In this document: piece after piece, positions 1 through 16,095 of the stretch | Layout: each line of letters opens with the position of its first letter | Position numbering within the stretch: position 1 is the first letter of the stretch | IMG/VR virus record: IMGVR_UViG_3300002835_000007 | Location: 25,748-89,747 of that record | Reading direction: 5' to 3' (one strand) | From: a virus | Length of the DNA: 64,000 bases | The notes under the pieces: generated by a model | Databases searched by the model: none | The model's input: only the letters and a program-made list of their open reading frames with translations | What the model was told of the DNA's origin: nothing | Position numbers and translations under genes: made by a program

Positions 1-1312
1 TGCAATCACACAAGAAGAATTAGATGAAGCATATGAGTACTTAGGTACTAAACATGGTGTATTTGGTCGTGATGATGTGTTTGATAAATCTAAATTCCAA
101 TACATTATAGATGTTCATGGTGGTAAACTACCAGTACGTATTAAAGCAGTACAAGAAGGTACAGTTGTAGGTGTTAAAAACGTTCTTATGACTATTGAGA
201 ACACTGACCCTAATTGTTATTGGTTAACTAACTTTTTAGAAACAATCATGATGCAATTATGGTATCCAATTACGGTTGCAACATTGTCACGTGAAGTTAA
301 GAAAATTGTTATCGAATACTACCAAAAAACATCTGCGTTACCACAACACATTATGGATACAGTTATTGAGTTCGTATTAAACGATTTCGGTTTTAGAGGT
401 GTATCATCAGTACAATCAGCTGGTTACGGTGGTTCAGCACACTTAATTAATTTTATGGGTTCTGACACAACAGTTGCATCAAAACGTATCTGTGAATACT
501 ATAATACTGACACAATATTTGGTTTATCAGTTCCAGCAACTGAACACTCTATCATGACAATGAAAGGTGAAGAAGGTGAAGTTGAAATGATGAGAAGAAC
601 ACTTGAGAAATACCCTACTGGAATTGTAGCGTGTGTATCTGACTCTTACCACATCTTACGTGCATGTTCTGAGAAATGGGGAACTGAGTTACGTGATTTG
701 ATTTTATCAAGACCATCAGAACCTGGAAATCAACTGGTTATTCGTCCAGATAGTGGTCACGTTGTCAACACATTAAAAGAAGTGTTTGCTATATTGTTTG
801 ATAAATTTGGTTACACTGTGAATGATAAAGGGTTCAAATTGTTACCACCACAAGTTCGTGTAATTCAAGGTGATGGTGTAAACATCAATTCAATTCGTGA
901 GATTTACGAAGAATTATACAGATTAGGTATTTCTGCTGAGAACATCGTGTTTGGTATGGGTGGTAAATTGTTACAAGCTGATATTAATAGAGATACACAA
1001 AACTTTGCAACTAAAGCATGTTTCGCTGTCGTAAATGGTGAACAACGTGATTTGGTTAAATCACCAACAGAAGTTGATGAAAATGGTGAATTAAAACCAT
1101 CATTCAAGAAATCTAAACAAGGTCGTTTGAAGTTGGTTAAACACTATACAAATGGTCAATACTACACTGTAACATCATTGGAAGATGGATATGAATCTGC
1201 ACATGATGAATTGAGAACTATTTTTGAAGATGGTAAACTATTGGTTGAAACGAAGTTTGAAGATATTCGTAGTAGAGCTAAAATTTTTAAATTAAACGTA
1301 GAATTAGTATAA
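1..1312 (+). CDS. nadV: nicotinamide phosphoribosyltransferase (NAMPT/NadV), 5' end truncated by window edge
   Basis: The frame is open from nt 2 (AITQEELDEAYEYLGTKHGVFGRDDV...) into the listed 77..1312 ORF. NAMPT-like motifs are present: GFRGVSS...GGSAHLINFMGSDT, IRPDSGH and GMGGKLLQ. About 436 aa are visible of an expected 470-490 aa. Confidence 0.85.
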   Translation, partial: AITQEELDEAYEYLGTKHGVFGRDDVFDKSKFQYIIDVHGGKLPVRIKAVQEGTVVGVKNVLMTIENTDPNCYWLTNFLETIMMQLWYPITVATLSREVKKIVIEYYQKTSALPQHIMDTVIEFVLNDFGFRGVSSVQSAGYGGSAHLINFMGSDTTVASKRICEYYNTDTIFGLSVPATEHSIMTMKGEEGEVEMMRRTLEKYPTGIVACVSDSYHILRACSEKWGTELRDLILSRPSEPGNQLVIRPDSGHVVNTLKEVFAILFDKFGYTVNDKGFKLLPPQVRVIQGDGVNINSIREIYEELYRLGISAENIVFGMGGKLLQADINRDTQNFATKACFAVVNGEQRDLVKSPTEVDENGELKPSFKKSKQGRLKLVKHYTNGQYYTVTSLEDGYESAHDELRTIFEDGKLLVETKFEDIRSRAKIFKLNVELV

Positions 1313-1800
1313 TGACAACAGATAAATTTATATTCTTTTGGGGAGGGACATACAGTCAATGGTGTCCTTCCACATTTGAAATCGGAGGTGTAAAATATAA
1401 TTGCTGCGAGCAATATATGATGGCACAAAAAGCATTATTATTCAATGACATAGAAAGTCACAAGATGATTATGTATGCTACTAGTCCACGTGACCAAAAA
1501 GCATTTGGACGTAGAGTAAAAGGGTTTGACAAAGACAAATGGGAAGCTGTTTGTAGAGAAATCGTTTACGATGCAAACTATGCCAAGTTTACTCAAAACC
1601 CATCTATGATGGCTGAGTTACTGGCAACTGGTGATAGAGAAATTGTAGAAGCTAGTCCAGAGGATAAAATCTGGGGAATTGGATTGCATGAAAACGATGC
1701 TAGAGTTCACGACAAGTCAAAATGGCAAGGAACCAATTGGTTAGGTGAAGCTATCATGCAAGTAAGAGAAAAATTAAGAACTATTAAAATAGAAATGTAA
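1312..1800 (+). CDS. NADAR (YbiA-like, DUF1768) ADP-ribose-processing hydrolase
   Basis: 162 aa with NADAR pattern (FFWG...EQYMMAQKA...DKIWGIG...GTNWLGEAIMQVREKL). The start overlaps the NAMPT stop (TAATG). Confidence 0.8.
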   Translation: MTTDKFIFFWGGTYSQWCPSTFEIGGVKYNCCEQYMMAQKALLFNDIESHKMIMYATSPRDQKAFGRRVKGFDKDKWEAVCREIVYDANYAKFTQNPSMMAELLATGDREIVEASPEDKIWGIGLHENDARVHDKSKWQGTNWLGEAIMQVREKLRTIKIEM

Positions 1801-2258
1801 TGATTAGATACGTAGAAGGCGATTTAGTGAAAATGGCCAAAGAAGGAGAATTCGATGTAATAGCACACGGTTGTAACTGTTTCTGTGCTATGGGTGCTGG
1901 TATTGCACCACAAATTAAAAATGCTTTTCCAGAAGCATATGAGGCTGATTGTGCAACAGTGGCTGGTGATGAATCAAAAATGGGTACTATTACTCATACG
2001 GTTAATTCTACACCGATAGTTGTAAACATTTATTCTCAATATGACACCAAAGGTAGACGTAGTGGTAACATGGATTTAGACTATGATGCTTTACGTTCTG
2101 GTTTAAAAGAGATGAAAGCTAAATTTTCTGGTAAAACAATTGGGTTACCGATGATTGGTGCTGGATTGGCTGGTGGTGATTGGGATATCATTGAGAAAAT
2201 AATTGAAGAAGAAATGATTGGTGAGTATGTAACAATCGTTCAATACGTTCCATGGTAA
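1800..2258 (+). CDS. macro domain protein (ADP-ribose / O-acetyl-ADP-ribose hydrolase family)
   Basis: 152 aa; glycine-rich macro signatures (HGCNCFCAMGAGIAPQI; GLPMIGAGLAGGDWDII). Translationally coupled to the upstream gene (TAATG). Confidence 0.75.
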   Translation: MIRYVEGDLVKMAKEGEFDVIAHGCNCFCAMGAGIAPQIKNAFPEAYEADCATVAGDESKMGTITHTVNSTPIVVNIYSQYDTKGRRSGNMDLDYDALRSGLKEMKAKFSGKTIGLPMIGAGLAGGDWDIIEKIIEEEMIGEYVTIVQYVPW

Positions 2259-2278
2259 TAATCTTTGTTAATAATCCA

Positions 2279-2551
2279 ATGCAAGATGCAAACACTCTTG
2301 AACCGCAATTAATTGATGGTAGAGTAGTTTATTGGACTGTGGTTAGTGAGTGTATGAAATCAAATGAAACATTCAAAGAATGGTTGGTTAGAAAGGAAGA
2401 AAGAATCAATACACATCCTAATTATAGTTCCATTGAAGGTCTTTTAATCTATGACATGCAACCAATTGTGTCTACCCCTTACGAAGGGGTGACACATGGT
2501 GGTATGATTATTAGGTATGCTTTTTTAAAGAAAAAAGAAGAAAACATTTGA
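2279..2551 (+). CDS. hypothetical protein, tandem paralogue of 2582..2839
   Basis: The track ORF 2252..2551 starts inside the macro gene. I chose the ATG at 2279 so the length matches its paralogue. Shared motifs: EGxxIYDxxxxxxxPY...HxGxIxxYxxLxK. Confidence 0.45.
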   Translation: MQDANTLEPQLIDGRVVYWTVVSECMKSNETFKEWLVRKEERINTHPNYSSIEGLLIYDMQPIVSTPYEGVTHGGMIIRYAFLKKKEENI

Positions 2552-2577
2552 TTTTTAATTTATTTTTAGTACATTTG
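2547..2577 (+). promoter_or_regulatory. Bacteroidota-type promoter (-33 TTTG / 19 nt / -7 TACATTTG); -7 box ends 4 nt before ATG 2582 (leaderless candidate)
   Basis: TTTG at 2547-2550 and TACATTTG at 2570-2577. Confidence 0.55.
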
Positions 2578-2581
2578 TAAC

Positions 2582-2839
2582 ATGAAAATAGTTTTTGAAA
2601 ATTTAGAAGAAGCGTTAAAAATACCATCTTCAGCATACACAATTAGAACTGAAACTCTTAAAGTTGAAGAGACTTTATTAGAGTGGATGAATAGAAAGAA
2701 TGAAATGTTATTAAATGACCCTAGATACGCTAACGTTGAAGGTGTTATTTTATATGACGTTGAGTCGTATTTTGATTCACCATACAAAGATAAGGTACAT
2801 AGTGGGTTAATCCTAAAATATAAGTATTTAAGAAAATGA
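2582..2839 (+). CDS. hypothetical protein, tandem paralogue of 2279..2551
   Basis: 85 aa; similar to the preceding ORF (VEGVILYDVESYFDSPYKDKVHSGLILKYKYLRK vs IEGLLIYDMQPIVSTPYEGVTHGGMIIRYAFLKK). The -7 box sits 4 nt upstream of the ATG. Confidence 0.5.
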   Translation: MKIVFENLEEALKIPSSAYTIRTETLKVEETLLEWMNRKNEMLLNDPRYANVEGVILYDVESYFDSPYKDKVHSGLILKYKYLRK

Positions 2840-3309
2840 AAGTAATATTTTTAGATATTGATGGAGTATTAGCAACAACATCTTGTTATGGTAAAGGAAA
2901 AAACAACAAGTGGGGTGCTTATATGTTTGACCAAAAAGCTGTTGTTTATCTCAATTTTATACTTAGTGAGACTGGTGCTGAAATCATTTTATCATCTGAT
3001 TGGCGAAATCAATATACTTTGCATGAAATGCGTGAAATTTTTTGTCATAACGGAGTGTTGAAAGGTCCGATAGGGTTTACACCATCGTTAAAAACATATA
3101 AGGGTGATAATCTTGAAGGTGGTCGTGCTGATGAAATAAATGCATGGTTAGAAATTAACGCATGGAAGAATGATATCAAATGGGTTGCCATTGATGATTT
3201 GAATATGGATGAATGGTTGTACCCTAACTTTGTTCATTGTCCTAATGAACATGAAGGAATCAAAAAACAAAACATAAAAGATAAAATAATACAAATATTA
3301 AATGGATAA
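2836..3309 (+). CDS. HAD-like hydrolase family protein
   Basis: 157 aa; N-terminal HAD motif I (VIFLDIDGVLATT). Start overlaps the upstream stop (ATGA). Confidence 0.5.
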   Translation: MKVIFLDIDGVLATTSCYGKGKNNKWGAYMFDQKAVVYLNFILSETGAEIILSSDWRNQYTLHEMREIFCHNGVLKGPIGFTPSLKTYKGDNLEGGRADEINAWLEINAWKNDIKWVAIDDLNMDEWLYPNFVHCPNEHEGIKKQNIKDKIIQILNG

Positions 3310-3736
3310 TTGGGATAAGAAGTTCATCAAGTTGTGTCAACACATTGCTGAATGGAGCAAGGATAAAAATAAAAAAGTTGGTGCTGTAATAGTTGATAAT
3401 GACAATGTAGTTATATCAATGGGTTATAATGGAATACCAAGAGGTTGTGATGATACTGAAGAGTGTCGTTATGAAAGACCAACAAAATATTTGTTCACAG
3501 AGCATGCTGAACGAAATGCAATATACCATGCAGCAAGACATGGTGTATCATTGAAAGATTGTAAAATGTATGTAACTTTGTTCCCATGTGCTGATTGTGC
3601 AAGAGCAATGATTCAATCTGGAATAACAAAAATAATAGCACCAGAACCAAATTTAGACCACGAAGTATGGGGTGTACACTTCAAGGCTGCGATTCAAATG
3701 ATGGAGGAAGCTAATATCGAAATAATTTTAATTTAA
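3302..3736 (+). CDS. dCMP deaminase (cytidine/deoxycytidylate deaminase family)
   Basis: 144 aa; zinc-binding deaminase motifs HAERNAI...PCADCARAMIQSGI. Confidence 0.85.
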   Translation: MDNWDKKFIKLCQHIAEWSKDKNKKVGAVIVDNDNVVISMGYNGIPRGCDDTEECRYERPTKYLFTEHAERNAIYHAARHGVSLKDCKMYVTLFPCADCARAMIQSGITKIIAPEPNLDHEVWGVHFKAAIQMMEEANIEIILI

Positions 3737-3912
3737 TGGAAACAGTTAAAGTAGGCTTGGCCAATGTTGGTGAAAAATTAATGCCAGTTGATATTGTCAT
3801 CAAATGGATGCCAACTGATATTGTATATGCTGGTGATACAGTGTTTTTTAAAAATGAAAAGTCCTATTATTCAATGAATTATATGGACTTTATGAGAATA
3901 TTTAATTTATAA
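3736..3912 (+). CDS. small hypothetical protein (58 aa, below track threshold)
   Basis: ATG overlaps the dCMP deaminase stop (TAATG). The ORF (METVKVGLANVGEKLMPVDIVIKW...) fills an otherwise empty 180-nt gap. Confidence 0.3.
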   Translation: METVKVGLANVGEKLMPVDIVIKWMPTDIVYAGDTVFFKNEKSYYSMNYMDFMRIFNL

Positions 3913-3915
3913 AAT

Positions 3916-4359
3916 ATGAGTATAGTAAGGTCAATAAAAATTAATCATTATGAACACATGGTTAATAGAAATTGGGATAAAACATATTGGGCGTTTGACA
4001 TCCATGGTACAATCCTAAAACCAAATTACGAGTATGGAAACATACCTAAAGAGTTTTACCCATTTGCTAAAGAAACACTTCAGTTTATTAGCAAGATGGA
4101 AGATGTTGTAATGATTCTTTACACATGTTCACATCCACATGAGATTGAACAATATATTGAGTATTTCAAAGAGAATGATATTCATTTTGATTACATAAAT
4201 GAAAACCCAGAGATAGCTACAAACCTAGAAGGTTATGGTAACTACGATAAAAAACCTTACATGAATGTATTATTTGAAGACAAAGCTGGATTCGATGGTG
4301 ACAGTGATTGGGATAGTGTTTTATGGTTATTAACTAGTAAAAATGGCGAGAATATCTGA
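3916..4359 (+). CDS. hypothetical protein
   Basis: 147 aa ORF; ATG start; co-directional and tightly packed. Confidence 0.5.
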   Translation: MSIVRSIKINHYEHMVNRNWDKTYWAFDIHGTILKPNYEYGNIPKEFYPFAKETLQFISKMEDVVMILYTCSHPHEIEQYIEYFKENDIHFDYINENPEIATNLEGYGNYDKKPYMNVLFEDKAGFDGDSDWDSVLWLLTSKNGENI

Positions 4360-4711
4360 CATACAAAGATACAATAAAGGTAGAAAAGATTTAACTAGGG
4401 ATAATGCCGATTTTGAAACATTAAGGTTTAAAAATGAAAATGGTGATGTTATGGTTATTAAACCACAAGAGGTTAGAGAAGTTTTACATGATTTTATTGA
4501 TAGTGAGATAGGTTTTTTGGGTGATGCAATGAAAACTCAAATAAAAGAAAGATTAGAGTTCAAAATTAAACAAGTTGAAAGAACTTTAATTGAACATTTA
4601 GATGATAAAATAAATAAAATTGCAGAATCAATATTAGAAAAAACTATTGATAGAATAGCAGAAGAAGAAATAAATAGAAGGGTTTTAGAAAAAATTAAAA
4701 AATGTTTATGA
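4343..4711 (+). CDS. hypothetical protein
   Basis: 122 aa ORF; charged helical C-terminus. Confidence 0.45.
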   Translation: MARISDIQRYNKGRKDLTRDNADFETLRFKNENGDVMVIKPQEVREVLHDFIDSEIGFLGDAMKTQIKERLEFKIKQVERTLIEHLDDKINKIAESILEKTIDRIAEEEINRRVLEKIKKCL

Positions 4712-5019
4712 AAAGAAGAAGAAGAATTGGTTTAATTATTTTTGCAATTGTAATTGCAATATTTTTGTTAAGTAGTTGTGCCGACACATCACATGTTAAA
4801 CAATGTTTACCACCAACAGAACACACTTATGGTTTCTGGGGTGGTACATGGCATGGTATGATAACAGTTCCATCATTTATTGGTAGTCTTATTTGGGACG
4901 ATGTTGCTGTATACGCAGTAAATAATAATGGTGGATGGTATGATTTTGGATTTGTAGGTGGATTATTTTTCATGCTAAAATTAGTTGGGATTGGTAATAA
5001 AAAAGTTAAAGAAAAATGA
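4702..5019 (+). CDS. hypothetical membrane protein
   Basis: 105 aa; basic N-terminus followed by hydrophobic segments (IGLIIFAIVIAIFLL; GGLFFMLKLVGI). Confidence 0.45.
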   Translation: MFMKRRRRIGLIIFAIVIAIFLLSSCADTSHVKQCLPPTEHTYGFWGGTWHGMITVPSFIGSLIWDDVAVYAVNNNGGWYDFGFVGGLFFMLKLVGIGNKKVKEK

Positions 5020-5780
5020 AAAAGAAAGTAGTAGTATTTAGTGGTGCTGGATTAGATAGAGAATCTGGTATCTTAACGTTTCGTGACTCTAAAGATGGGT
5101 TATGGAACAATTATAAAGTTGATGAAGTTGCGACAAAAGAAGGATGGTCTAAAAACCGTGAAAAAGTTTTGGCGTTTTACAACGAAAGACGTAGAGAATT
5201 ACCTAGTGTTGAACCAAACGATGCTCACAGAGCATTGGTGCGTTTAGAAGAAGGATATAGTGTATTAAACGTGACGCAAAACGTAACTGATTTGTTAGAA
5301 CGTGCTGGTGCAAGTGATATTATTCATTTACATGGTGAGTTAACCAAAGCAAGAGGTTGCTTCCATAAATCAGAAGGTTTTGACACTAATTACATTGTTA
5401 AAGAAATTGGTTATAACGACATTAACATCGGTGATAAATGTGAACATACTGATTCACAATTAAGACCACATGTTTGTTGGTTTGGTGAATGGCCTTATGA
5501 CACAGATAGAGCTTATGATGAAGTTCCATTTGCAGACATTCTTATCATTGTTGGTACAAGTTTAGAGATAACTTATACGTTATCAATGTTAGGTCAATTA
5601 AGACATAAAGTTTTAAGTGGTGAATGTGAAGTTTATTATGTTGACCCAAATCCATCAACTCACATGGAAGCTTATGGGATTAAACCTAATTACATTAGAA
5701 AAGTTGCTAGTGAAGGGTTAAATGAATTAGTTGACGAATTATTAAAAAGAGAAGAAAATCAAAAAAATATTGCTAATTAA
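5016..5780 (+). CDS. Sir2-family NAD-dependent protein deacylase / ADP-ribosyltransferase (sirtuin)
   Basis: 254 aa; sirtuin Rossmann signature VVFSGAGLDRESGILTFR...GLW, catalytic-region HLHGEL, and Cys pairs for a Zn ribbon. Confidence 0.8.
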   Translation: MKKKVVVFSGAGLDRESGILTFRDSKDGLWNNYKVDEVATKEGWSKNREKVLAFYNERRRELPSVEPNDAHRALVRLEEGYSVLNVTQNVTDLLERAGASDIIHLHGELTKARGCFHKSEGFDTNYIVKEIGYNDINIGDKCEHTDSQLRPHVCWFGEWPYDTDRAYDEVPFADILIIVGTSLEITYTLSMLGQLRHKVLSGECEVYYVDPNPSTHMEAYGIKPNYIRKVASEGLNELVDELLKREENQKNIAN

Positions 5781-5822
5781 TAATTTATTTAGTATATTTG
5801 AATTAATAAAATAAAAATAGAT

Positions 5823-6194
5823 ATGGAATATTACACGTTTGAAGGAGTTATCAAAGAGATTTTTGATACTCAAGAATTTAAAAACAATTTCAAGAAAAGA
5901 GAAGTTGTATTAGAAACAGAAGAGGATTATCCTCAATTAATAAAATTTGAGTTTACCGATGAAAATGGTATTAACAAATTAGATGACCATGCTGCTGGTG
6001 AAAAAGTTAAGATTGCTTTCTTACTAAAAGGTAGTGAATGGCAAGGTAAATATTTTACTAATTTAAGAGGTGTTGCAATTGCTTCATCAGAAGAACCAAC
6101 TTCTACTGATAAACCTAAAAAAGACACTAAGAAAGATGTTTTGTCTTCAATGACAAAAGTTAACAATAACGAAGAAGATGAATTACCATTCTAA
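5823..6194 (+). CDS. hypothetical protein (resembles Bacteroidota DUF3127-type small proteins)
   Basis: 123 aa; FDTQEF...KKREVVLET...WQGKYFTNL pattern. The family assignment is from memory only. Confidence 0.45.
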   Translation: MEYYTFEGVIKEIFDTQEFKNNFKKREVVLETEEDYPQLIKFEFTDENGINKLDDHAAGEKVKIAFLLKGSEWQGKYFTNLRGVAIASSEEPTSTDKPKKDTKKDVLSSMTKVNNNEEDELPF

Positions 6195-6196
6195 TC

Positions 6197-6550
6197 ATGA
6201 GTGTAGTTAAATTTGAATTGAAAGAAGAACACGTAAAGTTGTTAAAATATTTACGTTGGAGTAAATCAAAAGAACTTATTGTTAATATTTCTGATGATGA
6301 AGATTCTGTTCCATTTGGTTTTGATACTATCTATGAAGCAATAGATACAATATTAAACGGTAAACCAGAAGGGTTTGACCCATTTGAAGCAGATGATGTT
6401 ATTGAATATAGTGATGAACAAAAAGCTGAATGGGATAAATTATATGATGAGTTGCCAACAGCATTAGATGTCATATTACATAATCAATCATTTGATTTGG
6501 GGCGTTATAAGACCAAGTATCATGACAGAAACTGGAAAAAGATGAATTAA
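6197..6550 (+). CDS. hypothetical acidic protein
   Basis: 117 aa ORF. Confidence 0.45.
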   Translation: MSVVKFELKEEHVKLLKYLRWSKSKELIVNISDDEDSVPFGFDTIYEAIDTILNGKPEGFDPFEADDVIEYSDEQKAEWDKLYDELPTALDVILHNQSFDLGRYKTKYHDRNWKKMN

Positions 6551-6562
6551 TTTTCATCTTTT

Positions 6563-6594
6563 TTTGTTTATATGAAATATTATTCATACATTTG
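6563..6594 (+). promoter_or_regulatory. Bacteroidota-type promoter (TTTG / 20 nt / TACATTTG)
   Basis: TTTG 6563-6566; TACATTTG 6587-6594; ATG at 6618. Confidence 0.55.
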
Positions 6595-6617
6595 TAGAAA
6601 CTAAAAAATAAATAAAT

Positions 6618-6809
6618 ATGAAAAATGTAAAAAGTTACTGTATCATAAAGAAAGTGGTACAATCAAATGGGAAAACATTAAACGTGCTAATGTTAGATAT
6701 TAACACTGAAGTATTGGAATTCGATAATTTACAAGATGCTGAAAAATTTGCTGCATTGATGACACAAAACTCTGACTCTGGTTGGGAATACATCGTAAAA
6801 GAAATATAA
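6618..6809 (+). CDS. hypothetical protein
   Basis: 63 aa ORF with its own promoter (6563-6594). Confidence 0.4.
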   Translation: MKNVKSYCIIKKVVQSNGKTLNVLMLDINTEVLEFDNLQDAEKFAALMTQNSDSGWEYIVKEI

Positions 6810-6810
6810 T

Positions 6811-7857
6811 ATGAATCAATCGTTATTATTTACCTTAGATGGTAAAACAGAATTGGCTGAAGCCATTATTGACTCTGCTAATTTATTTAGCACGGAACAT
6901 GAAATTAGTTTAGGTTATTTAAACAAACAAAAATTCTCCGATGGTGAGTTATGTGTTGATTTCACTGACTCAGTTAGAGGTAAATCAGTGTTTTTGTTAT
7001 CTAGTCCAAACACATCAGATGCAATCATCAACTTAGCATTGGCTATTGATGCTGCAAAACGTGGTGGTGCTAAAGAGATTATACCTATCTTACCATATTT
7101 CCCATATGCTAGACAAGATAAGAAAGACCAAAGCAGAGGACCAATTGGTGCTAAGGTTATGGCTGAAATTATTGAACAACGTGGTGCAACATCAGTAATC
7201 ACTTTTGATTTACACGCTGACCAGATACAAGGGTTCTTTAATATACCAGTTACACACATTGAAGGTAAGCATGTTTTCGACAGTTACATCAACGATACTA
7301 TCAAAAACTTTACTGGTGGTGAAGTTGTATTGTGTGGACCAGATGCTGGTTCTGGTAAACGTGTTAAACGTATGCGTGACCAAATCAATAAAAGATATGG
7401 TGTTAACCTAAACATTGTCATGATTGACAAAACTAGGAAAAAAGCCAACGTGATTGATGAAATGATTATTATTGGTGATGTTAAAGGTAAACATGTTATC
7501 ATATTGGATGATATGGTTGATACTGCTGGTACGTTATGTAAAGCTGCTGAAGTATTGAAAGATGCTGGTGCGTTGACTGTAAGGGCGATAATTGCACATG
7601 GTGTGTTATCTGGGCCAGCAGTTGAACGAATTGGTGAAAGTAAATTAGCTGAATTAGTAATAAGTGATTCATTACCAATGAAAGATGCTAAAGAATTATG
7701 TCATAAAGAATTTAATGAAACAAAATGTCATCATATTATAAAAGGGTGCGAGAAAACAACTGTTATTAGTGTAGCACAACAAATTGGGATGGGAGTTTCT
7801 GCATCAATCAATAAACTAAGCTACGAAGCATTAAAATCAATTAAAGCAGTATATTAA
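6811..7857 (+). CDS. prs: ribose-phosphate pyrophosphokinase (PRPP synthetase)
   Basis: 348 aa; Prs signatures DLHADQIQGFFNIPVTHI and the PRPP-binding loop IILDDMVDTAGTLCKAAEVLKDAGA. Confidence 0.9.
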   Translation: MNQSLLFTLDGKTELAEAIIDSANLFSTEHEISLGYLNKQKFSDGELCVDFTDSVRGKSVFLLSSPNTSDAIINLALAIDAAKRGGAKEIIPILPYFPYARQDKKDQSRGPIGAKVMAEIIEQRGATSVITFDLHADQIQGFFNIPVTHIEGKHVFDSYINDTIKNFTGGEVVLCGPDAGSGKRVKRMRDQINKRYGVNLNIVMIDKTRKKANVIDEMIIIGDVKGKHVIILDDMVDTAGTLCKAAEVLKDAGALTVRAIIAHGVLSGPAVERIGESKLAELVISDSLPMKDAKELCHKEFNETKCHHIIKGCEKTTVISVAQQIGMGVSASINKLSYEALKSIKAVY

Positions 7858-7988
7858 TGAGTAAAAATAATTTTGACAACACAACGCTATTACAAATAGC
7901 ATTGGTTGGTGGTATTGTAACCCTAGCAGCATTGGGTGTGAATGGTTGGGGTTGGTTAGTTTTCGCACTAGTATTAACATTATAAAAA
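7857..7988 (+). CDS. small hydrophobic protein (43 aa, unannotated in track)
   Basis: ATG overlaps the prs stop (TAATG). MSKNNFDNTTLLQIALVGGIVTLAALGVNGWGWLVFALVLTL has two predicted TM segments. Confidence 0.3.
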
Positions 7989-7996
7989 ATAAAAAT

Positions 7997-8884
7997 ATGT
8001 CACATTTCGCAGTATTAGTTATCGGTGATAACGTTGAAGAACAATTGGCTAAATACGATGAAAGCATTGAAATGCCAAGGTATGTTAAACATACAAAAGA
8101 AGAATTGATTGTTGAAGAAAAACAATCAATTGAAGAGTATAAGAATGGTACTTATGCTCAATATTTAGCAGACCCAGTTAAGTATGCTGAGAATGTTAAT
8201 AATGAAAATCATTTGAAGTATGTATCAGAAGAGTTTCCTAAGAAATTGGAAATGAATGATGAGGAAATTTACCAACAAGCTATCAAATACTATGAAGAAG
8301 AATATTTAGGTCCAGATGGTGAAGTATATTCAACATATAACCCAGATTCTAAATGGGATTGGTATGAAGTAGGTGGTCGTTATGCTGGTCGTATTGCAGT
8401 GAAAGATGGTGTTGAAATTGATGAACCTAATTTCTCATGGGGTTGGCAAGAAGAAGATAAAGAAAAAGTAATTGCTGAAGGTTATAAAACTGATTCAGCA
8501 TACGTTGGAGATATTGATTTCTCTAAAATGCACAGAACTGAAGAAGATTACAATGAAGCTTTGCGTTATTGGGAACTAATTGTTGAAGGTGCTAAACCTA
8601 AAAACGAAGATGAAACAAACCAAGTTAAATGGAATTGGTATAAACCAGAGTATTACACTGAAAGATACAAAGATAAAGAAACGTATGCTAAATGTAATTC
8701 TTCATTCTCTATGTGGGCTGTTGTGAAAGATGGTGTGTGGTATGAGAAAGGTCAAATGGGTTGGTGGGCTATGTCCAATGAAACGCATGATGAAGCTTTG
8801 GATTGGGAAATGAATTTCTATGATAGATTCATCAAAGATTTACCAGAAGATACATTAATCACAGTTGTTGATTGTCACATTTAA
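7997..8884 (+). CDS. hypothetical protein
   Basis: The track ORF starts at a TTG (7946); the first ATG is at 7997 (MSHFAVLVIGDN...). About 295 aa; acidic and Trp-rich. Confidence 0.5.
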   Translation: MSHFAVLVIGDNVEEQLAKYDESIEMPRYVKHTKEELIVEEKQSIEEYKNGTYAQYLADPVKYAENVNNENHLKYVSEEFPKKLEMNDEEIYQQAIKYYEEEYLGPDGEVYSTYNPDSKWDWYEVGGRYAGRIAVKDGVEIDEPNFSWGWQEEDKEKVIAEGYKTDSAYVGDIDFSKMHRTEEDYNEALRYWELIVEGAKPKNEDETNQVKWNWYKPEYYTERYKDKETYAKCNSSFSMWAVVKDGVWYEKGQMGWWAMSNETHDEALDWEMNFYDRFIKDLPEDTLITVVDCHI

Positions 8885-8896
8885 AAAAAAAACATT

Positions 8897-9127
8897 ATGA
8901 GTGAAGAAAAAGAATATAAAGACGAAACATTCGTTTTGAGTGCTGCACAACACAAAAAGTACGATGAATGGAGGAAAGAAAAGAATGAAAAGGATGGGGA
9001 AGTATATGTAGGTGCCATTGGTGGTGCCTACTCCTTTTGTTTCACACCAACTGGATTGGGTGATATGGTAGTTGTTAAGTGTGCTGATGGTACACAATTA
9101 GATTTAACAGAATACGAATATTGGTGA
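8897..9127 (+). CDS. hypothetical protein
   Basis: 76 aa ORF. Confidence 0.4.
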   Translation: MSEEKEYKDETFVLSAAQHKKYDEWRKEKNEKDGEVYVGAIGGAYSFCFTPTGLGDMVVVKCADGTQLDLTEYEYW

Positions 9128-9129
9128 TT

Positions 9130-9672
9130 ATGAATGATAATGAATTATTTTGTGCTTGTGTAAAAGGTAATACACAAGCACAAGGTTTATTATATGAAAA
9201 ATATAATAAACATCTATTTAACATTTGTTTAAGATACCTAGGTAATGAATATGACGCTGATGATTGTCTTCAAGATGGGTTTTTACATATTTTAAACAAG
9301 TTAACTAAAATGGATGCCACAACTAATATTAAATTAAATGGTTGGTTAAGTGTGGTAATGAAAAACTATACATTAGATGTGTTAAGAAAGAAAAAGAATG
9401 AAATGTCATTTGAATCAGTTGAATATTTTACAACTGAAGTAGTTGATGAAGAGGAGTTTATGGTTTCTATTTCGCAAAATACATTATTAGAATTAATAAA
9501 TAATTTATCACCACAATTTAAGAAAGTGTTTGAAATGTATGCTATTGATGAATTACCACATAAAGATATTGCAAAAGAATTAGGTATTAGTGAGAGTACA
9601 TCTAAGACTAATTACCATAGAGCAAGAAAAAAATTAAAAAAAGCTTTATTTCATTTGGATATTATAAATTAA
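9130..9672 (+). CDS. ECF-type RNA polymerase sigma factor (sigma70 regions 2 and 4)
   Basis: Track start 9121 is a TTG; ATG at 9130. Region 2-like segment (LLYEKYNKHLFNICLRYLGNEYDADDCLQDGFLHIL...WLSVVMKNYTLDVLRK) and a region 4 helix-turn-helix (ELPHKDIAKELGISESTSKTNYHRARKKL). Confidence 0.7.
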   Translation: MNDNELFCACVKGNTQAQGLLYEKYNKHLFNICLRYLGNEYDADDCLQDGFLHILNKLTKMDATTNIKLNGWLSVVMKNYTLDVLRKKKNEMSFESVEYFTTEVVDEEEFMVSISQNTLLELINNLSPQFKKVFEMYAIDELPHKDIAKELGISESTSKTNYHRARKKLKKALFHLDIIN

Positions 9673-9701
9673 ATTAGTATTTTAGGGTAAAATATTTAAT
9701 T

Positions 9702-11282
9702 ATGAAATTTAAAGAATTAACGGATGAAGTAATCGAAAAAGCAAGACAAATCTACACTGATAAAAGTATCAGTTGGGACAATAGAATGTCACTGTTAACA
9801 AATTTACTTGGTCGTTCAGAAAGAACTGTTCGCAAATGGTGTTCAGAGAAACTAGGGTTTAAAGAAAAAGCTGAAGTAGAACCAGAACAATACACCCAAG
9901 CAAAAAGCAAAGTGTTTGATAAAGAAAAGAAAAGATTTATCATTACATGGGCCCAAAACAACACTCCAATACATGCTAAATTTCTTAAAAACATTGAGAA
10001 ATATGCTGAATTTATTGAAGCTGACATTCATGTTATTGCTGGACGATATAAAAACCCTACTAGTGTATGGTCTGCTGAACAAGAAAATGAAGAGTTTTGG
10101 GATGAAAGAGTTGTAAAATACTTAGATGCTAACAGACATGATATACACAAATATTTGTCTATATTATCTGATATTAAAATACCACCTACAGCGGTTAACC
10201 CTATGACTGGTATGCAAGCATTAAGTGGTGTCAATTCATGTGTTTTTGGTAGCCCTAAAGTGCAAATGGAGATGATTCCAGTGTTAGATGGTAACGCACC
10301 TAAAATGATGTTAACAACTGGTGCTGTAACGATGCAAAACTATACTGATTCAAAATCTGGTAAAGTTGGTGAGTTCCACCATACATTTGGGTTTGTTGTT
10401 GTTGAAATCAAAGATAATGAAATTTTCTTTGTTAGACAAGTAACTGCTGATGATAAGAATGGTAACTTTTCAGACCTATATTATAGAGTTGAAAATGGGT
10501 TAATCAAACCTATTAAAACAATGGAAGCCATCATATTAGGTGATTTACATTGTGGTCATCATGACATAGATGTGTTGAACACAACAATTAATATGATGTA
10601 TAAAATATTACCTAAACACGTAATATTACATGACGTATTTGATGGAGATTCTATTAGTCATCACCAAATGAAAGACCCATTTGTTCAATATGGTAAAGAA
10701 GTGCAAGGTACTAATGATTTAGGTAAGGAAATCGATGATATGATGGTTATATTAGATAACTTTAAAGAGTTTGAAAATGTAGTTATTGTTCGTTCAAACC
10801 ATGATGACTTTGTTGACCGATGGTTAAAGAATGAAGATTGGAAAAAACAACCTACATTTAAAAACGCACCATTGTATATGGACTTGAGTGCTAGACTTTT
10901 AAGACAATATGCAACTGGTGATGAAGTGATTGGTGTTATTCCAGAATTAATCAAAGAAAGATTCCCTAAGTTTAAAACATTGGGTAGAAGTGCTTCTTAT
11001 AGAGTTAAAGATTGGGAGTTGGGACAGCATGGTGATATTGGTTCTAACGGAAGTAGAGGTTCTTTGTTACAGTTTAGAAAATTGAACACAAAGATTGTAG
11101 TTGGACATTACCATTCTCCAGGTCGTAAAGATGGTGCATTAGCAGTAGGAACTACGACAAGACTTAGAGTTGGGTACAATAATGGACCTAGTACATGGTT
11201 ACAAAGTCACGTTATTATACACAATGATGGTAGAGCACAACATATTAATTTTATTAATGGTGAATTTACAACATTTGGGTAA
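9702..11282 (+). CDS. metallophosphoesterase-domain protein (calcineurin/Mre11-SbcD-like motifs) with an N-terminal HTH-like region
   Basis: 526 aa; motifs in order ILGDLHCGHHD, HDVFDGD, IVRSNHDDF, GHYHSPG in the C-terminal half. The N-terminal roughly 280 aa are unassigned. Confidence 0.55.
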   Translation: MKFKELTDEVIEKARQIYTDKSISWDNRMSLLTNLLGRSERTVRKWCSEKLGFKEKAEVEPEQYTQAKSKVFDKEKKRFIITWAQNNTPIHAKFLKNIEKYAEFIEADIHVIAGRYKNPTSVWSAEQENEEFWDERVVKYLDANRHDIHKYLSILSDIKIPPTAVNPMTGMQALSGVNSCVFGSPKVQMEMIPVLDGNAPKMMLTTGAVTMQNYTDSKSGKVGEFHHTFGFVVVEIKDNEIFFVRQVTADDKNGNFSDLYYRVENGLIKPIKTMEAIILGDLHCGHHDIDVLNTTINMMYKILPKHVILHDVFDGDSISHHQMKDPFVQYGKEVQGTNDLGKEIDDMMVILDNFKEFENVVIVRSNHDDFVDRWLKNEDWKKQPTFKNAPLYMDLSARLLRQYATGDEVIGVIPELIKERFPKFKTLGRSASYRVKDWELGQHGDIGSNGSRGSLLQFRKLNTKIVVGHYHSPGRKDGALAVGTTTRLRVGYNNGPSTWLQSHVIIHNDGRAQHINFINGEFTTFG

Positions 11283-11686
11283 TGAAAAAGAAATTTAAGA
11301 AGTATACAGAACTTACTAACATTAGAAAAAAAGAGTTAAATAAGTTGTTTAAATCTAAAATTGAATTATATGAATGGCAGCATCCAATTAGATGGTGCCA
11401 TAAGTATAGTGTTTCAAAAGAAGAGTGTAAGTTATGGTTGGCAGAATTAATTGCCAACCATGCTAAAACTCCAAAGAACACATTAGATTACGTACAATAC
11501 TGTTTAGGTGCTTGGGGTAAACATTTTGAAATGACTACTCAACAATTCGATGTGATTAAAGAATGTATTGATACTGGTGATGACGCTAAACAAATAGCTT
11601 TCAATGTCTTAAACACCGTTAAGTTTGACCAAATAGAATTAATTAGTACTGATGAACATTATTTTTTAGCTAAAGAATTAAAATAA
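11282..11686 (+). CDS. hypothetical protein
   Basis: 134 aa ORF; start overlaps the upstream stop (TAATG). Confidence 0.45.
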   Translation: MKKKFKKYTELTNIRKKELNKLFKSKIELYEWQHPIRWCHKYSVSKEECKLWLAELIANHAKTPKNTLDYVQYCLGAWGKHFEMTTQQFDVIKECIDTGDDAKQIAFNVLNTVKFDQIELISTDEHYFLAKELK

Positions 11687-11687
11687 T

Positions 11688-12140
11688 ATGATTAAAACAA
11701 TAGCAGCTGGTGTATTTATTATTAATAAAAATAATAAAGTATTGATTTGTCACCCAACAAATCATAAACCAAATACATGGAGCATACCAAAAGGTAAGAT
11801 TGAAGCATTAGAAACTTTTGCTGAAGCTTGTATAAGAGAAACTTTTGAAGAAACAAACATAGATTTATCAGATTATAAAGATAAATTGATTATGTTGGAT
11901 AGTGTGAACTATTCACATAAAAAGAAAATGTTAATTCCTTTTGTTTTATTTGAGAATGATTGTGAGTTATTAGATTTAACTATGGTAACTTTACAATGTA
12001 ACTCAAATGTTCCAGAAGATAGAGGTGGATTTCCAGAAATGGATGGTTATGATTGGGTTACAATTGATGAAGCAAGAAAACTATTACATCCAACACAAGT
12101 TGCATGTTTAGATAAGGTTAAACAATTATTTTCAAGATGA
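11688..12140 (+). CDS. Nudix hydrolase
   Basis: 150 aa; Nudix box GKIEALETFAEACIRETFEETNI fits Gx5Ex7REUxEExGU. Confidence 0.8.
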   Translation: MIKTIAAGVFIINKNNKVLICHPTNHKPNTWSIPKGKIEALETFAEACIRETFEETNIDLSDYKDKLIMLDSVNYSHKKKMLIPFVLFENDCELLDLTMVTLQCNSNVPEDRGGFPEMDGYDWVTIDEARKLLHPTQVACLDKVKQLFSR

Positions 12141-12355
12141 TGAGATTAGATTTACATGGGGTTAAACACCACGAAGTTTCCAGAAAAGTAGATGAATTTA
12201 TCTGGGAAACTATTCAGAAGAAGAAGACACAAGCTGTTATTATAACTGGCAAGTCTACACCAATGAAACAATTAGTTAAAGATTGTTTAAAAGATTATGA
12301 CGCTAAATGTTTTGATTTGTTTGATGGTGGAAGTTTAGTTGTAGATTTATTTTAA
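12137..12355 (+). CDS. Smr-domain protein (small MutS-related nuclease domain)
   Basis: 72 aa; LDLHGVKHHEV...AVIITGKS matches the Smr signature (LDLHG...ITGKG). Confidence 0.55.
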   Translation: MMRLDLHGVKHHEVSRKVDEFIWETIQKKKTQAVIITGKSTPMKQLVKDCLKDYDAKCFDLFDGGSLVVDLF

Positions 12356-12361
12356 AATAAA

Positions 12362-12393
12362 TTTGCAAAATAGAAAAAAAGTTAGTACATTTG
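12362..12393 (+). promoter_or_regulatory. Bacteroidota-type promoter (TTTG / 20 nt / TACATTTG)
   Basis: TTTG 12362-12365; TACATTTG 12386-12393; ATG 12418. Confidence 0.55.
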
Positions 12394-12417
12394 AGTATAT
12401 AATTAAAAAGTAAATAA

Positions 12418-13659
12418 ATGAGTGATGTAAAAAAAGTATGGAATGAAGATGATAGTAGATTATATCTTTCTTTTCCATCAAAAGAATTTGACCTATTAGA
12501 TAATGGTGCTGTTTACAGTATTGGTATTGATGAAATGGGCCGTTTCTTCTTAACGAAGAAAAGTGATGGTTATAAGTTTGATTACAAACTTTATGGTTTG
12601 GAAACAGATTTTGTTAACCGAGTTATTAAAACATACGGTAAAACACAAGGAAACTTGGGTATTTTATTGAATGGTATCAAAGGTACTGGTAAAACAGTTA
12701 GTTCTAAATTGATTGCAACAAAAATCAATTTGCCAATTATCGTAGTTGATAGAAAAATAGATGGTGTTCATACTTTCTTAAACACTATCACACAAGACAT
12801 CACAGTTTTTATTGATGAGTATGAAAAGATTTATGGTGAATCTTCTCAAATGTTAACCATTATGGATGGTGCGTTAAACTCAACATACAGACGTTTGTTT
12901 TTGTTAACTACCAACGAGTTATATGTTGATAGAAACATCATTGAACGTCCAAGTCGTGTACGTTATTTGAAAGTGTTTGGTAATCTTAAACCAGATGTAG
13001 TTGAAGAAATTGTTGATGATATTTTAGAATACACACAATTCAAAAAAGAATGCATTTCATTTATTTCTAGTCTTGAAACAATTACAATTGATATTGTAAA
13101 AGCAGTATTGAATGAAGTAAACATCCATGAAGAAGCTCCGTCTGCATTTGAAAACGTGTTCAACGTTAAGAAAATCAAAGGTAACTACAATGTTAACCTT
13201 GTTGAAGATGGAAGTTTAAGCAAATTGGCTAAAAACGTTAGAGTTTATCCAAAACCAACTTATGCTGATAATTCAATCGGTTACCACTTTGAAATTGATG
13301 GTCAATCAATCGGTATGATTACTAGAATCATTAACTGGACAACTATCGAGGTGTCACCATACACTGATAGAAAAGGTAAACTAGTAGGTTTTGATGAACC
13401 AATTATCTTAAAAATTGAAGATGCTGATACTGTTAACTACGCATACAGCTATGGTTCATTTGATGAGTTTGGTATTCCAACAAATGCAGCAGCAGTATCT
13501 ACAACAAAAGAAGTTTCACCAATTGCTAATAGAATTTTAAAAGCAATTGAAAAATCTGATGAAGAAGAAGATGAATCAGACAATGATGTTGTTGAAATGA
13601 AAGTATCATCTATACCATTAGTTGATGATAGTTTTGAATCTAAAACAATATGTGAATAA
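12418..13659 (+). CDS. AAA+ ATPase family protein
   Basis: 413 aa; Walker A GILLNGIKGTGKT and Walker B-like FIDEYE; acidic C-terminal tail. Confidence 0.6.
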   Translation: MSDVKKVWNEDDSRLYLSFPSKEFDLLDNGAVYSIGIDEMGRFFLTKKSDGYKFDYKLYGLETDFVNRVIKTYGKTQGNLGILLNGIKGTGKTVSSKLIATKINLPIIVVDRKIDGVHTFLNTITQDITVFIDEYEKIYGESSQMLTIMDGALNSTYRRLFLLTTNELYVDRNIIERPSRVRYLKVFGNLKPDVVEEIVDDILEYTQFKKECISFISSLETITIDIVKAVLNEVNIHEEAPSAFENVFNVKKIKGNYNVNLVEDGSLSKLAKNVRVYPKPTYADNSIGYHFEIDGQSIGMITRIINWTTIEVSPYTDRKGKLVGFDEPIILKIEDADTVNYAYSYGSFDEFGIPTNAAAVSTTKEVSPIANRILKAIEKSDEEEDESDNDVVEMKVSSIPLVDDSFESKTICE

Positions 13660-13668
13660 AAAATAAAT

Positions 13669-13689
13669 AAGGGGACAATTGTCCCCTTA
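13669..13689 (+). terminator. hairpin (possible terminator) after AAA ATPase gene
   Basis: Perfect palindrome AAGGGGACAATTGTCCCCTTA, followed by a T-rich tract. Confidence 0.55.
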
Positions 13690-13704
13690 TAAATTTAAAA
13701 TTAA

Positions 13705-14085
13705 ATGACTAATAAAGTTAAAATAAAATTAAAAGACATAGTTCAATCTAAAAAACAGATTCATTGGTCCAAAAAACAATTAAATATGATTGATGGGATT
13801 TCTGATAATTATGATGAGGATATAAGTTTAATATGGGTCACAAAATTTAACGAAATTATTGATGGACATCATAGATATGAAATATTGATTAATAAATTTG
13901 GTGGTGAACATGAGATAACGGTAAGACAATTTAATGTGTCAAAAAAAATATTTAAAACAATAGTTTATATTTTTTTACCATTATCTTTAATTATTTTATT
14001 ACCTTTGTATTTAATTATTGAACGTTTTAAATTTAAAAAATGGCAAAGAAAAAAAGAGAACATAGAATTAATGATGAAATCATAG
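13705..14085 (+). CDS. ParB-like nuclease-domain protein with C-terminal TM anchor
   Basis: 126 aa; DGHHR motif (IIDGHHRYEIL) followed by hydrophobic IVYIFLPLSLIILLPLYLII. Confidence 0.4.
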   Translation: MTNKVKIKLKDIVQSKKQIHWSKKQLNMIDGISDNYDEDISLIWVTKFNEIIDGHHRYEILINKFGGEHEITVRQFNVSKKIFKTIVYIFLPLSLIILLPLYLIIERFKFKKWQRKKENIELMMKS

Positions 14086-14537
14086 CAAGAACTGTAAGAG
14101 TTGATGGTGTTATTATGTCTATTCAAGAAGCATTACATAAAGCTGAACAATCTGAAATGGATTTGGTTTTAATTAATGATAATGCTGAACCTAAAATATG
14201 TCGCATATTAAACTATCAAAAGTTTTTATACGAACAAAAAAGAAAAGACAAAGAAAAGAGTAAATCACTTGAACTTAAAGAAATAAAGTTAGGACCAAAC
14301 ACATCTGAAAATGATTTATCTTATCGTTCTAAACACATTATTGAGTTTTTGGATAAAGGACATAAAGTAAAACTTACTATGCAGTTCAGAGGTCGTGAAA
14401 TGGCCTTTGTTTCCAAAGGTGAGTTGATTATGTTAAAATTGATTGATTCGATTTCAGAACATGGGTTGCCAGAAAGTATGCCAAAGATGGAGGGTAAAAG
14501 AATGCAATGTCTTCTAAAACCAAAAGTTAAGAAATAA
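14040..14537 (+). CDS. infC: translation initiation factor IF-3
   Basis: 165 aa. Colinear with bacterial IF3: N-domain INDEIIARTVRVDG...DLVLIN, linker, and C-domain KEIKLGPNTSENDLSYRSKHIIEFLDKGHKVKLTMQFRGREMAF. Overlaps the previous ORF by 46 nt. Confidence 0.85.
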   Translation: MAKKKREHRINDEIIARTVRVDGVIMSIQEALHKAEQSEMDLVLINDNAEPKICRILNYQKFLYEQKRKDKEKSKSLELKEIKLGPNTSENDLSYRSKHIIEFLDKGHKVKLTMQFRGREMAFVSKGELIMLKLIDSISEHGLPESMPKMEGKRMQCLLKPKVKK

Positions 14538-15247: not shown

Positions 15248-15595
15248 ATGAACGTTATGAATATGTTTAAAAGTAGGAAAGGTAAGATAAAAAGTGTTTT
15301 AGAATATAAACTTGGTAATAAGTTAGATGATAATGATATCAATGACATATTAGAAGTTTTTGATGTGTATCAAAAAGATAATTTAGATAGCATTGATAAA
15401 TTAAAGCGAGATAAAGTTTACGAAACAAAAAGAATTAGTGGTGCATTGAAACAAACAATCAATGCTCATGGACCAATTACTAAACAATTCATTGGTTCAG
15501 CAACCAAAAGGGTTTATGGGTCATTGTTAAACAACGAAAAGAAAGAAAGTTTTATAATAAGATTATGGAAAAAGATATGGAAAAAACAAAAATAG
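15248..15595 (+). CDS. hypothetical basic protein
   Basis: 115 aa ORF with its own promoter (15201-15232). Confidence 0.45.
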   Translation: MNVMNMFKSRKGKIKSVLEYKLGNKLDDNDINDILEVFDVYQKDNLDSIDKLKRDKVYETKRISGALKQTINAHGPITKQFIGSATKRVYGSLLNNEKKESFIIRLWKKIWKKQK

Positions 15596-16095
15596 CAATA
15601 TTTGATTTTGATGGGACATTGGTTAACACACCGATGCCAGATGAAGGTAAAGATTTATACAAAGAAAAGACTGGCAAAGAATGGCCGCATAAAGGTTGGT
15701 GGTCTAAACCAGAATCATTAGACTTAGATGTTTTTGAAATGCCTACAGTTGATGATGTAATTGTTGATTACGTATTAGAAGCAGCAACAAAAGATACAAT
15801 CATTGTTATGTTGACTGGTCGTATGCAAAACTTATCAGATAGTGTTAAAAAAATATTAGATGCACATGGTCTTATGTTTCACGAATACCATTTCAACAGA
15901 GGTGGCAGCACTGAATATGCTAAAATGAATACTATGGATGATTTACTTAATAAATACCCATCAGTTAGAGAAATAAAAATGTGGGATGATAGAGATGAAC
16001 ACATTCCAATCTTCAAAGAATGGGGAGATAAAAAAGTATCATCTGGTAGATTAGACAAGTTTAAAATTAAACATGTTATTCAAAATAGACATTGA
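15565..16095 (+). CDS. HAD-like hydrolase
   Basis: 176 aa; HAD motif I IAIFDFDGTLVNT. Confidence 0.5.
   Translation: MEKDMEKTKIAIFDFDGTLVNTPMPDEGKDLYKEKTGKEWPHKGWWSKPESLDLDVFEMPTVDDVIVDYVLEAATKDTIIVMLTGRMQNLSDSVKKILDAHGLMFHEYHFNRGGSTEYAKMNTMDDLLNKYPSVREIKMWDDRDEHIPIFKEWGDKKVSSGRLDKFKIKHVIQNRH

Follow-up and report, generated by a model that had tools for sequence, protein, structure and literature searches.

The first 7,857 bases of a 64,000-nucleotide stretch of viral DNA (IMG/VR record IMGVR_UViG_3300002835_000007, positions 25,748 to 89,747; hereafter the window) carry genes for a nicotinamide phosphoribosyltransferase (NAMPT), for a phosphoribosyl pyrophosphate (PRPP) synthetase (Prs) and for several proteins that may handle ADP-ribose (ADPR). 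From our analyses, we conclude that this region probably makes up most of an island for NAD+ salvage and ADP-ribose handling in an uncultured jumbo phage. The island is likely to encode an NAD+ reconstitution pathway of the second published type (NARP2), built from canonical enzymes and extended by the phage's own Prs, which could run from ADPR via ribose-5-phosphate (R5P), PRPP and nicotinamide mononucleotide (NMN) to NAD+. An earlier note, made from the letters of the window alone, had placed NAMPT, NADAR, macro, Sir2, Prs and Nudix genes in it, and open reading frames (ORFs) and Pfam matches confirm all six, on the plus strand (Table 1). Its proposal of a canonical NAMPT fed by the phage Prs is also supported: each protein scores above the cutoff of the NCBIfam model for its canonical enzyme (NF006629 and NF002320), and motifs and a neighbour-joining tree agree.

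In the proposed pathway, Nampt would join nicotinamide to PRPP, giving NMN, which the NadM domain of a bifunctional NadM-Nudix protein would convert with ATP to NAD+. NadM is fused to a Nudix domain of the ADP-ribose pyrophosphatase type, from which cleavage of ADPR to AMP and R5P would be expected, and the phage Prs could turn this R5P into PRPP. If the loop runs in this way, NAD+ would be rebuilt from ADPR and nicotinamide, both products of NAD+-depleting defences, and host PRPP would be spared. Around this loop NADAR, the macro-domain protein and perhaps a SLOG protein and HAD phosphatases may free or clean up ADP-ribose held in DNA adducts or in phosphorylated or acylated derivatives, and Sir2 would be a consumer of NAD+ that yields nicotinamide and O-acyl-ADPR.

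The predicted adenylyltransferase of this pathway lies just outside the window. After a simple gene call, all ORFs of at least 45 amino acids (aa) in the 64 kb were scanned with Pfam as concatenated sequences, and none contained an NMN adenylyltransferase (NMNAT; CTP_transf_like) domain. The earlier note had likewise seen none and had left two alternatives, an adenylyltransferase beyond the window or a pathway wired differently; the first proved right. The note had proposed to look for an NMNAT or NadM gene in the rest of the genome. The exact NADAR protein was found on 18 contigs, one of which, L002 (JGI 3300043775), overlaps the window from its position 8690 and was taken to be the same phage because only 8 mismatches occur in 11,800 bases. 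On this contig the missing ADENYLYLTRANSFERASE was located upstream, as a 329-aa NadM-Nudix protein at 7056-8045, ending 645 bases before window position 1. Between it and the full 539-aa NAMPT sits a 112-aa YAcAr/SLOG protein (Pfam 1.2e-16), and a DHFR gene also lies upstream. The island begins about 1.6 kb upstream of the window, and the same phage encodes its NMNAT homologue there.

The 329-aa protein matches solved bifunctional NMN adenylyltransferase/ADP-ribose pyrophosphatases, in which the two domains follow the same order. A profile built from 14 homologues recovered the F. tularensis enzyme (2qjt) at 3.5e-16, the Synechocystis enzyme at 1.1e-9 and an archaeal NMNAT at 3.3e-6, the domains being collinear with those of 2qjt and 2qjo. 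When a homologue of 94% identity was modelled with AlphaFold2 (pLDDT 81.9), the six best PDB matches were these NadM-Nudix structures (E 2e-18 to 2e-15); the TM-scores are low, which fits a different orientation of the two domains towards each other. Family members are annotated by JGI as 'bifunctional NMN adenylyltransferase/nudix hydrolase', and the motifs SGTEVR (ISSTxxR) and, in the Nudix domain, REFKEE (REUxEE) are conserved. Because the protein scores below the NCBIfam equivalog cutoffs, we regard it as a divergent member. A tblastn search of the phage collection with this protein returned only five records, the 309-kb Tunturiibacter phage Tunturi_5 and four large genomes of uncultured phages. 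At E 1e-5 the search of this collection did not reach NatV of phage KVP40; a link to NatV is suggested by the solved relatives that both proteins share.

The NAMPT ORF runs off the start of the window, which contains the C-terminal 436 of the 539 residues; 103 residues are missing, and the gene starts 308 bases upstream. The protein matches mammalian NAMPT structures at 1.5e-101, and its full length scores 539.9 bits on NF006629, the NadV-family equivalog (cutoff 405). The earlier note had allowed that catalytic residues might be lacking. Alignment to mammalian NAMPT found all of them, the autophosphorylated His included (F193, R196, D219, H247, R311, D313, G353/D354, G383/G384 and R392 in human numbering; D16 and Y18 fall in the segment upstream of the window).

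The other published phage pathway is NARP1, in which Adps pyrophosphorylates ADP-ribose and Namat joins the product (ADPR-PP) to nicotinamide (Osterman et al., 10.1101/2024.02.11.579819). Namat carries an adenine 'selectivity clamp' motif, GS-X-phi-X-phi-X-phi-TRD (GS[FY]x[FY]x[FY]xTRD), whose positions 3 and 7 are aromatic (PMC12774641). In our alignment the Namat proteins of SPbetaL1 and Sf14 read GSFTYQYNTRD and GSYTYQYLTRD, whereas this motif was absent from the window NAMPT, whose active-site loop GMGGKLLQADINRD is of the Nampt type, as in the human enzyme and in KVP40 NadV (GMGGGLLQQLDRD). Identity was 39% to KVP40 NadV (301 bits) versus 35% to SPbetaL1 Namat (240 bits); the protein lies nearer to mammalian NAMPT and to KVP40 NadV than to Namat. 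These features point to a canonical Nampt-clade enzyme, for which the substrate preference of that clade is predicted.

Prs matches human PRPS1 at 4.4e-64 and scores 307 bits on NF002320 (cutoff 297) and 268 bits on TIGR01251 (cutoff 113). It has what defines a class I ribose-phosphate pyrophosphokinase: the DDxxDTxGT loop for R5P (here the canonical DDMVDTAGT), the catalytic flexible loop (KTRKKANV), the His of DLHA and a score above the family cutoff. The C-terminal module is kept as well, whereas Adps has a remodelled PP loop and has lost the C-terminal a11-a12 module (PMC13586617). Prs is 38-42% identical to the human, Listeria, Acinetobacter and cyanophage enzymes, versus 22-25% to four Adps-type proteins. 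The phylogenetic placement suggested in the earlier note was carried out for Prs as a neighbour-joining tree, in which Prs grouped with cellular Prs and apart from Adps in 100/100 bootstraps. All of this argues for a canonical PRPP synthetase with a predicted specificity for R5P. More than 120 clusters, at 63% identity or higher, make up the phage lineage to which it belongs, and the lists of Prs and NadM homologues share longest contigs of equal size (304260, 350439, 363897 and 359159). The protein also contains a C-terminal, Cys/His-rich insertion of about 20 aa (CHKEFNETKCHHIIKGC, window 7690-7760), which is missing from relatives of 327 aa and partly conserved in others.

The island recurs in related phages. 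We surveyed 80 IMG/VR loci that encode the NadM-Nudix family (34-100% identity) and restricted the count of Prs to the 60 loci whose downstream flank reached 9 kb or more. A NAMPT-family gene was found downstream on the same strand in 76 of the 80 loci; among the 60 with sufficient flank, it was present in 58 and Prs in 18. The DD..DT core was found in all 17 readable Prs loops and the complete DDxxDTxGT in 16. In the full set of 80, Sir2 was counted at 25 loci, macro at 23, NADAR at 21 and SLOG at 14. No Namat-type loop occurred among the active-site loops recovered from the surveyed loci, all of which were of the Nampt type or, at 11 loci, divergent. Related contigs of 200-372 kb have the order NadM-Nudix, (SLOG), NAMPT, NADAR, (APRT-like), macro, HAD, dCMP deaminase and, further downstream, Sir2.

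The survey also yielded variants of this arrangement. At the 11 divergent loci (L023-L027, L031, L035, L036, L043, L044 and L086), NadM-Nudix is directly followed by a divergent phosphoribosyltransferase partner that shares only 22-27% identity with Nampt and has the loop GQGGGLRNxLKRDN. A gene resembling adenine phosphoribosyltransferase (APRT) lies between NADAR and macro in some relatives (L007 13114-13905, L008 15374-15904, L028 about 12857) and is absent from the window phage; it would be a second user of PRPP in the island and could rebuild AMP from adenine. The 263-aa 'Pribosyltran' gene beside NADAR in L007 was considered as an Adps and rejected, as it is APRT-like and resembles Prs and Adps only at the level of the P-loop.

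Window positions 1-14,000 form a run of plus-strand genes whose junctions overlap or nearly abut. Within the island, junctions are overlaps or gaps of at most 68 bases: the NADAR start overlaps the NAMPT stop, and the macro start overlaps the NADAR stop. A promoter and terminator scan found no terminator-like site on the plus strand before 9008, and we infer that the island may be co-transcribed. The island opens with NadM-Nudix, SLOG (YAcAr), Nampt, NADAR and macro; two small paralogues, the HAD phosphatase and the dCMP deaminase come next, before four small ORFs, Sir2, three small ORFs and Prs. DUF3127 and small ORFs without a family are also interspersed among the named genes, and a PHROGs search of ten unassigned island ORFs gave no connection to NAD. 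The dCMP deaminase is a nucleotide-metabolism neighbour and no NAD enzyme.

Table 1. Positions of the named island genes and of the stand-alone Nudix gene within the window, with the family matches that identify them
Predicted product	Position	Strand	Family match
NAMPT (Nampt/NadV type)	2..1312	+	Pfam PF04095 2.7e-41, plus end of NAMPT_N
NADAR ADP-ribosyl glycohydrolase, stand-alone, YbiA-like	1312..1800	+	Pfam NADAR 7.2e-54
Small macro-domain protein, TARG1/DarG-macro/BT1257 group	1800..2258	+	Pfam Macro 2.3e-9
HAD phosphatase, 'Swiss army knife RNA repair' type	2836..3309	+	Pfam HAD_SAK_2 1.5e-26
dCMP/cytidine deaminase	3302..3736	+	Pfam dCMP_cyt_deam_1 7.3e-27
Second HAD-type phosphatase candidate (weak)	3916..4359	+	NCBIfam BT0820-family HAD phosphatase 4.7e-8, below cutoff; phrog_1238 3e-13
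CobB-like class III sirtuin (Sir2)	5016..5780	+	Pfam SIR2 8.5e-37
Class I ribose-phosphate pyrophosphokinase (Prs)	6811..7857	+	Pribosyltran_N 1.8e-31, Pribosyl_synth 2.7e-18
Stand-alone 150-aa Nudix hydrolase	11688..12140	+	Pfam NUDIX 1.4e-16

The phage has no close cultured relative in the collection of 50,697 phage records, in which megablast of positions 1-8000 gave no match. A contig with an identical Prs spans 205,931 bases or more. GC makes up about 30% of the sequence, and a Flavobacterium-like bacterium is a possible host.

Islands of this type have been described before. Neighbourhoods of NadM, NadV, NADAR, SLOG and Macro genes in jumbo phages were reported in 2022 (Iyer, Burroughs, Anantharaman and Aravind, PMC9503650), with the same domain set as here and NADAR co-located with NadM and NadV; SLOG, Macro and Nudix were found to be enriched in large phages. 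The earlier note had called the concentration of NADAR, macro and sirtuin genes unusual: the cluster is real, but it is a published feature of jumbo phages, together with NadV and NadM, and no oddity. 'NAD-jumbo phages' followed in 2024 (PMC11662467), and in 2026 Flavobacterium jumbophages were reported to carry NAD-salvage islands, about 10 kb in size, that include NAMPT and an NMNAT-Nudix gene (PMC13573597). Compared by description only, the window fits the latter, and such a phage would be in keeping with its low GC content and with its matches to JGI metagenome and IMG/VR viral contigs. Terms for a canonical Prs are absent from the texts of these three papers, and this enzyme is the sole island element that we did not find discussed in them; PRPP is never mentioned in PMC9503650, so that its supply lies outside the network drawn there.

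Among the experimentally described pathways, the island most resembles NARP2 of KVP40, consisting of NadV and NatV (Osterman et al. 2024), which has been shown to overcome Thoeris and DSR2 at the cost of PRPP consumption (10.1101/2024.02.11.579819). Both have a Nampt-clade enzyme with the same loop type and a bifunctional NMNAT-Nudix partner, NMN is the predicted intermediate, and there is no Adps. Unlike KVP40, the window phage has a NadM-Nudix of a divergent family and carries its two core genes in adjacent positions, flanked by SLOG, NADAR and macro genes. It also adds a canonical Prs in the same island, whereas phages with this Nampt clade lack any Adps or Prs homologue by the published count (10.1101/2024.02.11.579819). 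With NARP1 and its extension NARP1-AP (Adps, Namat and the macro-domain protein Adpp), the island would share the net conversion of ADPR, nicotinamide and ATP to NAD+ if the loop runs, and a macro-domain gene is associated with the pathway in both. The route would differ, passing through R5P, PRPP and NMN instead of ADPR-PP, and neither of the two defining sequence features of NARP1 is present.

Several points weigh against a functional NARP2-type pathway with its own PRPP supply. In the NadM of this phage the HxGH motif reads HEGQ (LHEGQ); among 103 homologues scored, the first His is kept in 103/103, whereas at the last position 81 have His and 22 Gln, this phage being among the latter. The last His of HxGH matters in related nucleotidyltransferases, so that adenylyltransferase activity is not assured. 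The Nudix box of the same protein contains a one-residue insertion, and the substrate of this domain is predicted from distant solved relatives only. The upstream genes were read from the sister contig, outside the window itself, and the promoter scan was uninformative, with 62 promoter-like sites versus 70.8 expected by chance. Prs starts 5.5 kb 3' of the NAMPT stop, with 14 ORFs in between, and stands beside genes of nucleotide metabolism. Only 30% of the related loci carry it, and in the huge phages LR756502 and LR756504 Nampt adjoins NadM-Nudix, but Prs and Sir2 are hundreds of kb away. Because of this distance, occurrence and neighbourhood, Prs may serve nucleotide synthesis in general.

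NADAR scores 163.6 bits on TIGR02464 (cutoff 73.7) and matches the PDB structure 8bau (NADAR, 8.6e-16) and YbiA (1.9e-9). The motifs EQY..K and D.IWGIG are kept, and the protein resembles stand-alone, YbiA-like NADARs, unlike T4 gp30.3. A phage NADAR, AdfN, counters DarTG1 (PMC11257639). The macro protein matches BT1257 (2fg1, 1.7e-12) and OARD1/TARG1 (5e-5), yeast Poa1p over its N-terminal residues 2-50 only (7e-6), and the macro part of the NCBIfam DarG model at 9.1e-13, far below the cutoff. Its identity is about 51% to a protein that occurs in 2,996 phage records, often under the annotation 'phosphatase', and that is spread regardless of NAD genes. We place it in the TARG1/DarG/BT1257 group. 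In other phages, a macro-domain ADPR-1''-phosphatase extends NARP1 against RES-type NADases (10.64898/2026.01.28.702374), and DarG2-like macro proteins protect chimalliviruses (PMC13309987). Directly 3' of the macro gene lie two small paralogous ORFs (2252-2551 and 2582-2839) that belong to no Pfam or PHROG family; relatives have similarly sized ORFs at the same position.

Sir2 matches E. coli CobB structures at 3.7e-40 and scores below the NCBIfam cutoffs. The catalytic His (HLHG), GAG and the acyl-binding Y..R are kept, but the QNID motif reads QNVTD, at a position where relatives have QNV[D/S/T]D. The HAD phosphatase of the Swiss-army-knife type keeps its position in related islands and is present in 18 of the 80 loci. 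The stand-alone 150-aa Nudix protein, which the earlier note had counted in the NAD gene set, is probably unrelated to the pathway: its best solved relatives are Dcp2-type decapping enzymes (2e-7), its other matches are generic MutT/RppH proteins, and an Smr gene (12137-12355) begins before its own reading frame has ended. As a candidate for the ADPR pyrophosphatase of the pathway, it was rejected in favour of the NadM-fused Nudix on account of these matches and of its coupling to Smr.

Taken together, these genes might form a self-contained counter-defence module, a possibility that we put forward only tentatively and with more doubt than confidence. NADAR and the DarG-like macro protein would remove ADP-ribose that a defence has placed on phage DNA, the macro protein might also tidy ADPR-1''-phosphate or O-acyl-ADPR, and the freed ADPR, together with that made by NAD+-depleting effectors, would pass through Nudix, Prs, Nampt and NadM to NAD+. 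The authors of PMC9503650 had favoured soluble ADPR derivatives as substrates of NADAR and macro proteins, whereas according to later experiments a phage NADAR can act against DarT.

The NARP2-type island could also be a general metabolic booster that supplies NAD+ and PRPP for phage replication and for the phage's own NAD+ consumers (Sir2 and possibly a ligase or ADP-ribosyltransferases elsewhere), with Prs serving mainly nucleotide synthesis and no role in counter-defence. The dCMP deaminase and the DHFR gene around the island, the APRT-like PRPP user inside it in relatives and the remote Prs of the huge phages are in keeping with this, NARP2 raises NAD+ even without a defence system, and 'NAD-jumbo phages' and 'NAD-salvage islands' were read in this way by those who described them (PMC11662467, PMC13573597). 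These observations are, however, compatible with counter-defence too. KVP40 NARP2 beats two NAD+-depleting defences in experiments, roles against DarT have been published for neighbours of the NADAR and DarG-like macro kinds (PMC13309987 among them), and a gene for an Acb1-like 2H phosphoesterase (anti-CBASS type) lies a few kb upstream of the island in relatives (L007 1655-2209, L008 4186-4746). We consider a purely metabolic role unlikely.

More improbable is an NAD+-dependent RNA-repair module of Sir2, the Swiss-army-knife HAD and macro. Here Sir2, acting like KptA, would strip 2'-phosphates off cleaved tRNA; the resulting ADPR-phosphate would be handled by macro and HAD, and the NAD+ spent would be made good by the salvage genes. 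Most phage sirtuins are predicted to belong to an RNA-repair clade, and one conserved neighbourhood pairs Sir2 with this type of HAD (Iyer et al., PMC9503650). The window contains HAD_SAK_1 (15565-16095) in addition to HAD_SAK_2 and is rich in genes for RNA and translation rescue (RNase R-like, SmpB, IF3), and the 2H phosphoesterase of L007 and L008 is accompanied upstream by tRNA-modification and tRNA-synthetase-like genes. The published reading of the sirtuins is, however, a prediction, Pfam scans of the window found no RNA ligase, KptA or 2H gene, and Sir2 looks like a CobB-type deacylase, with the acyl-carboxylate-binding Y..R in place. NARP1 itself, with the Prs-like protein as Adps, the NAMPT-like protein as Namat and NAD+ made directly from ADPR and nicotinamide with no need of an NMNAT, accounts for most Prs-like and NAMPT-like pairs of cultured phages (859 phages, and 79% of phage Namat/Nampt homologues) and would fit the lack of an NMNAT in the window, but here it is hardly credible and was excluded on grounds of sequence that the earlier note had not weighed, namely the Nampt-type loop without the clamp, the R5P loop and C-terminal module of Prs, its split from Adps in identity and tree, and the scores of both enzymes above canonical cutoffs, to which are added the 5.5 kb between the two genes (Namat lies in the immediate vicinity of 97% of Adps genes) and the NadM-Nudix gene beside Nampt.

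Beyond the island, the window encodes IF3 (14040-14537), an RNase R/II-like exoribonuclease (16741-18726) and SmpB (26648-27088), which belong to translation and RNA surveillance, and two phage sigma factors, at 9121-9672 and 27111-27971, one of them ECF-like and the other sigma-70-like with region 1.2. A DOT1-like methyltransferase (39929-40504), a DenV-like pyrimidine-dimer glycosylase (32907-33377) and a 526-aa phrog_1745 protein ('DNA transfer protein', 9702-11282) with a metallophosphoesterase-like C-terminal half were also found. The sole substantial minus-strand block of the window, at 43712-48617, consists of four paralogous genes (479, 331, 331 and 479 aa) that all start MRRFDKKK...ANLRLE and belong to no Pfam family; the GC skew flips there. 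A search of the window for tRNA and tmRNA genes gave none.

The island type being already known, the window offers a well-characterised example of it with one plausible extension, a NARP2 with its own PRPP supply fed by ADPR. The case illustrates that the two published phage NAD+ pathways can be told apart from sequence alone despite identical Pfam labels, even when the deciding gene lies outside the window. A canonical phage Prs, found at 18 of 60 loci, is a recurring extension of NARP2 that would answer its consumption of host PRPP, and together with the fused ADPR pyrophosphatase it would make ADPR usable as starting material. If ADP-ribose is indeed stripped from phage DNA and recycled, these phages would have arrived independently at a counterpart of NARP1, put together from housekeeping-type enzymes and free of the PRPP drain that is held to be the cost of NARP2.

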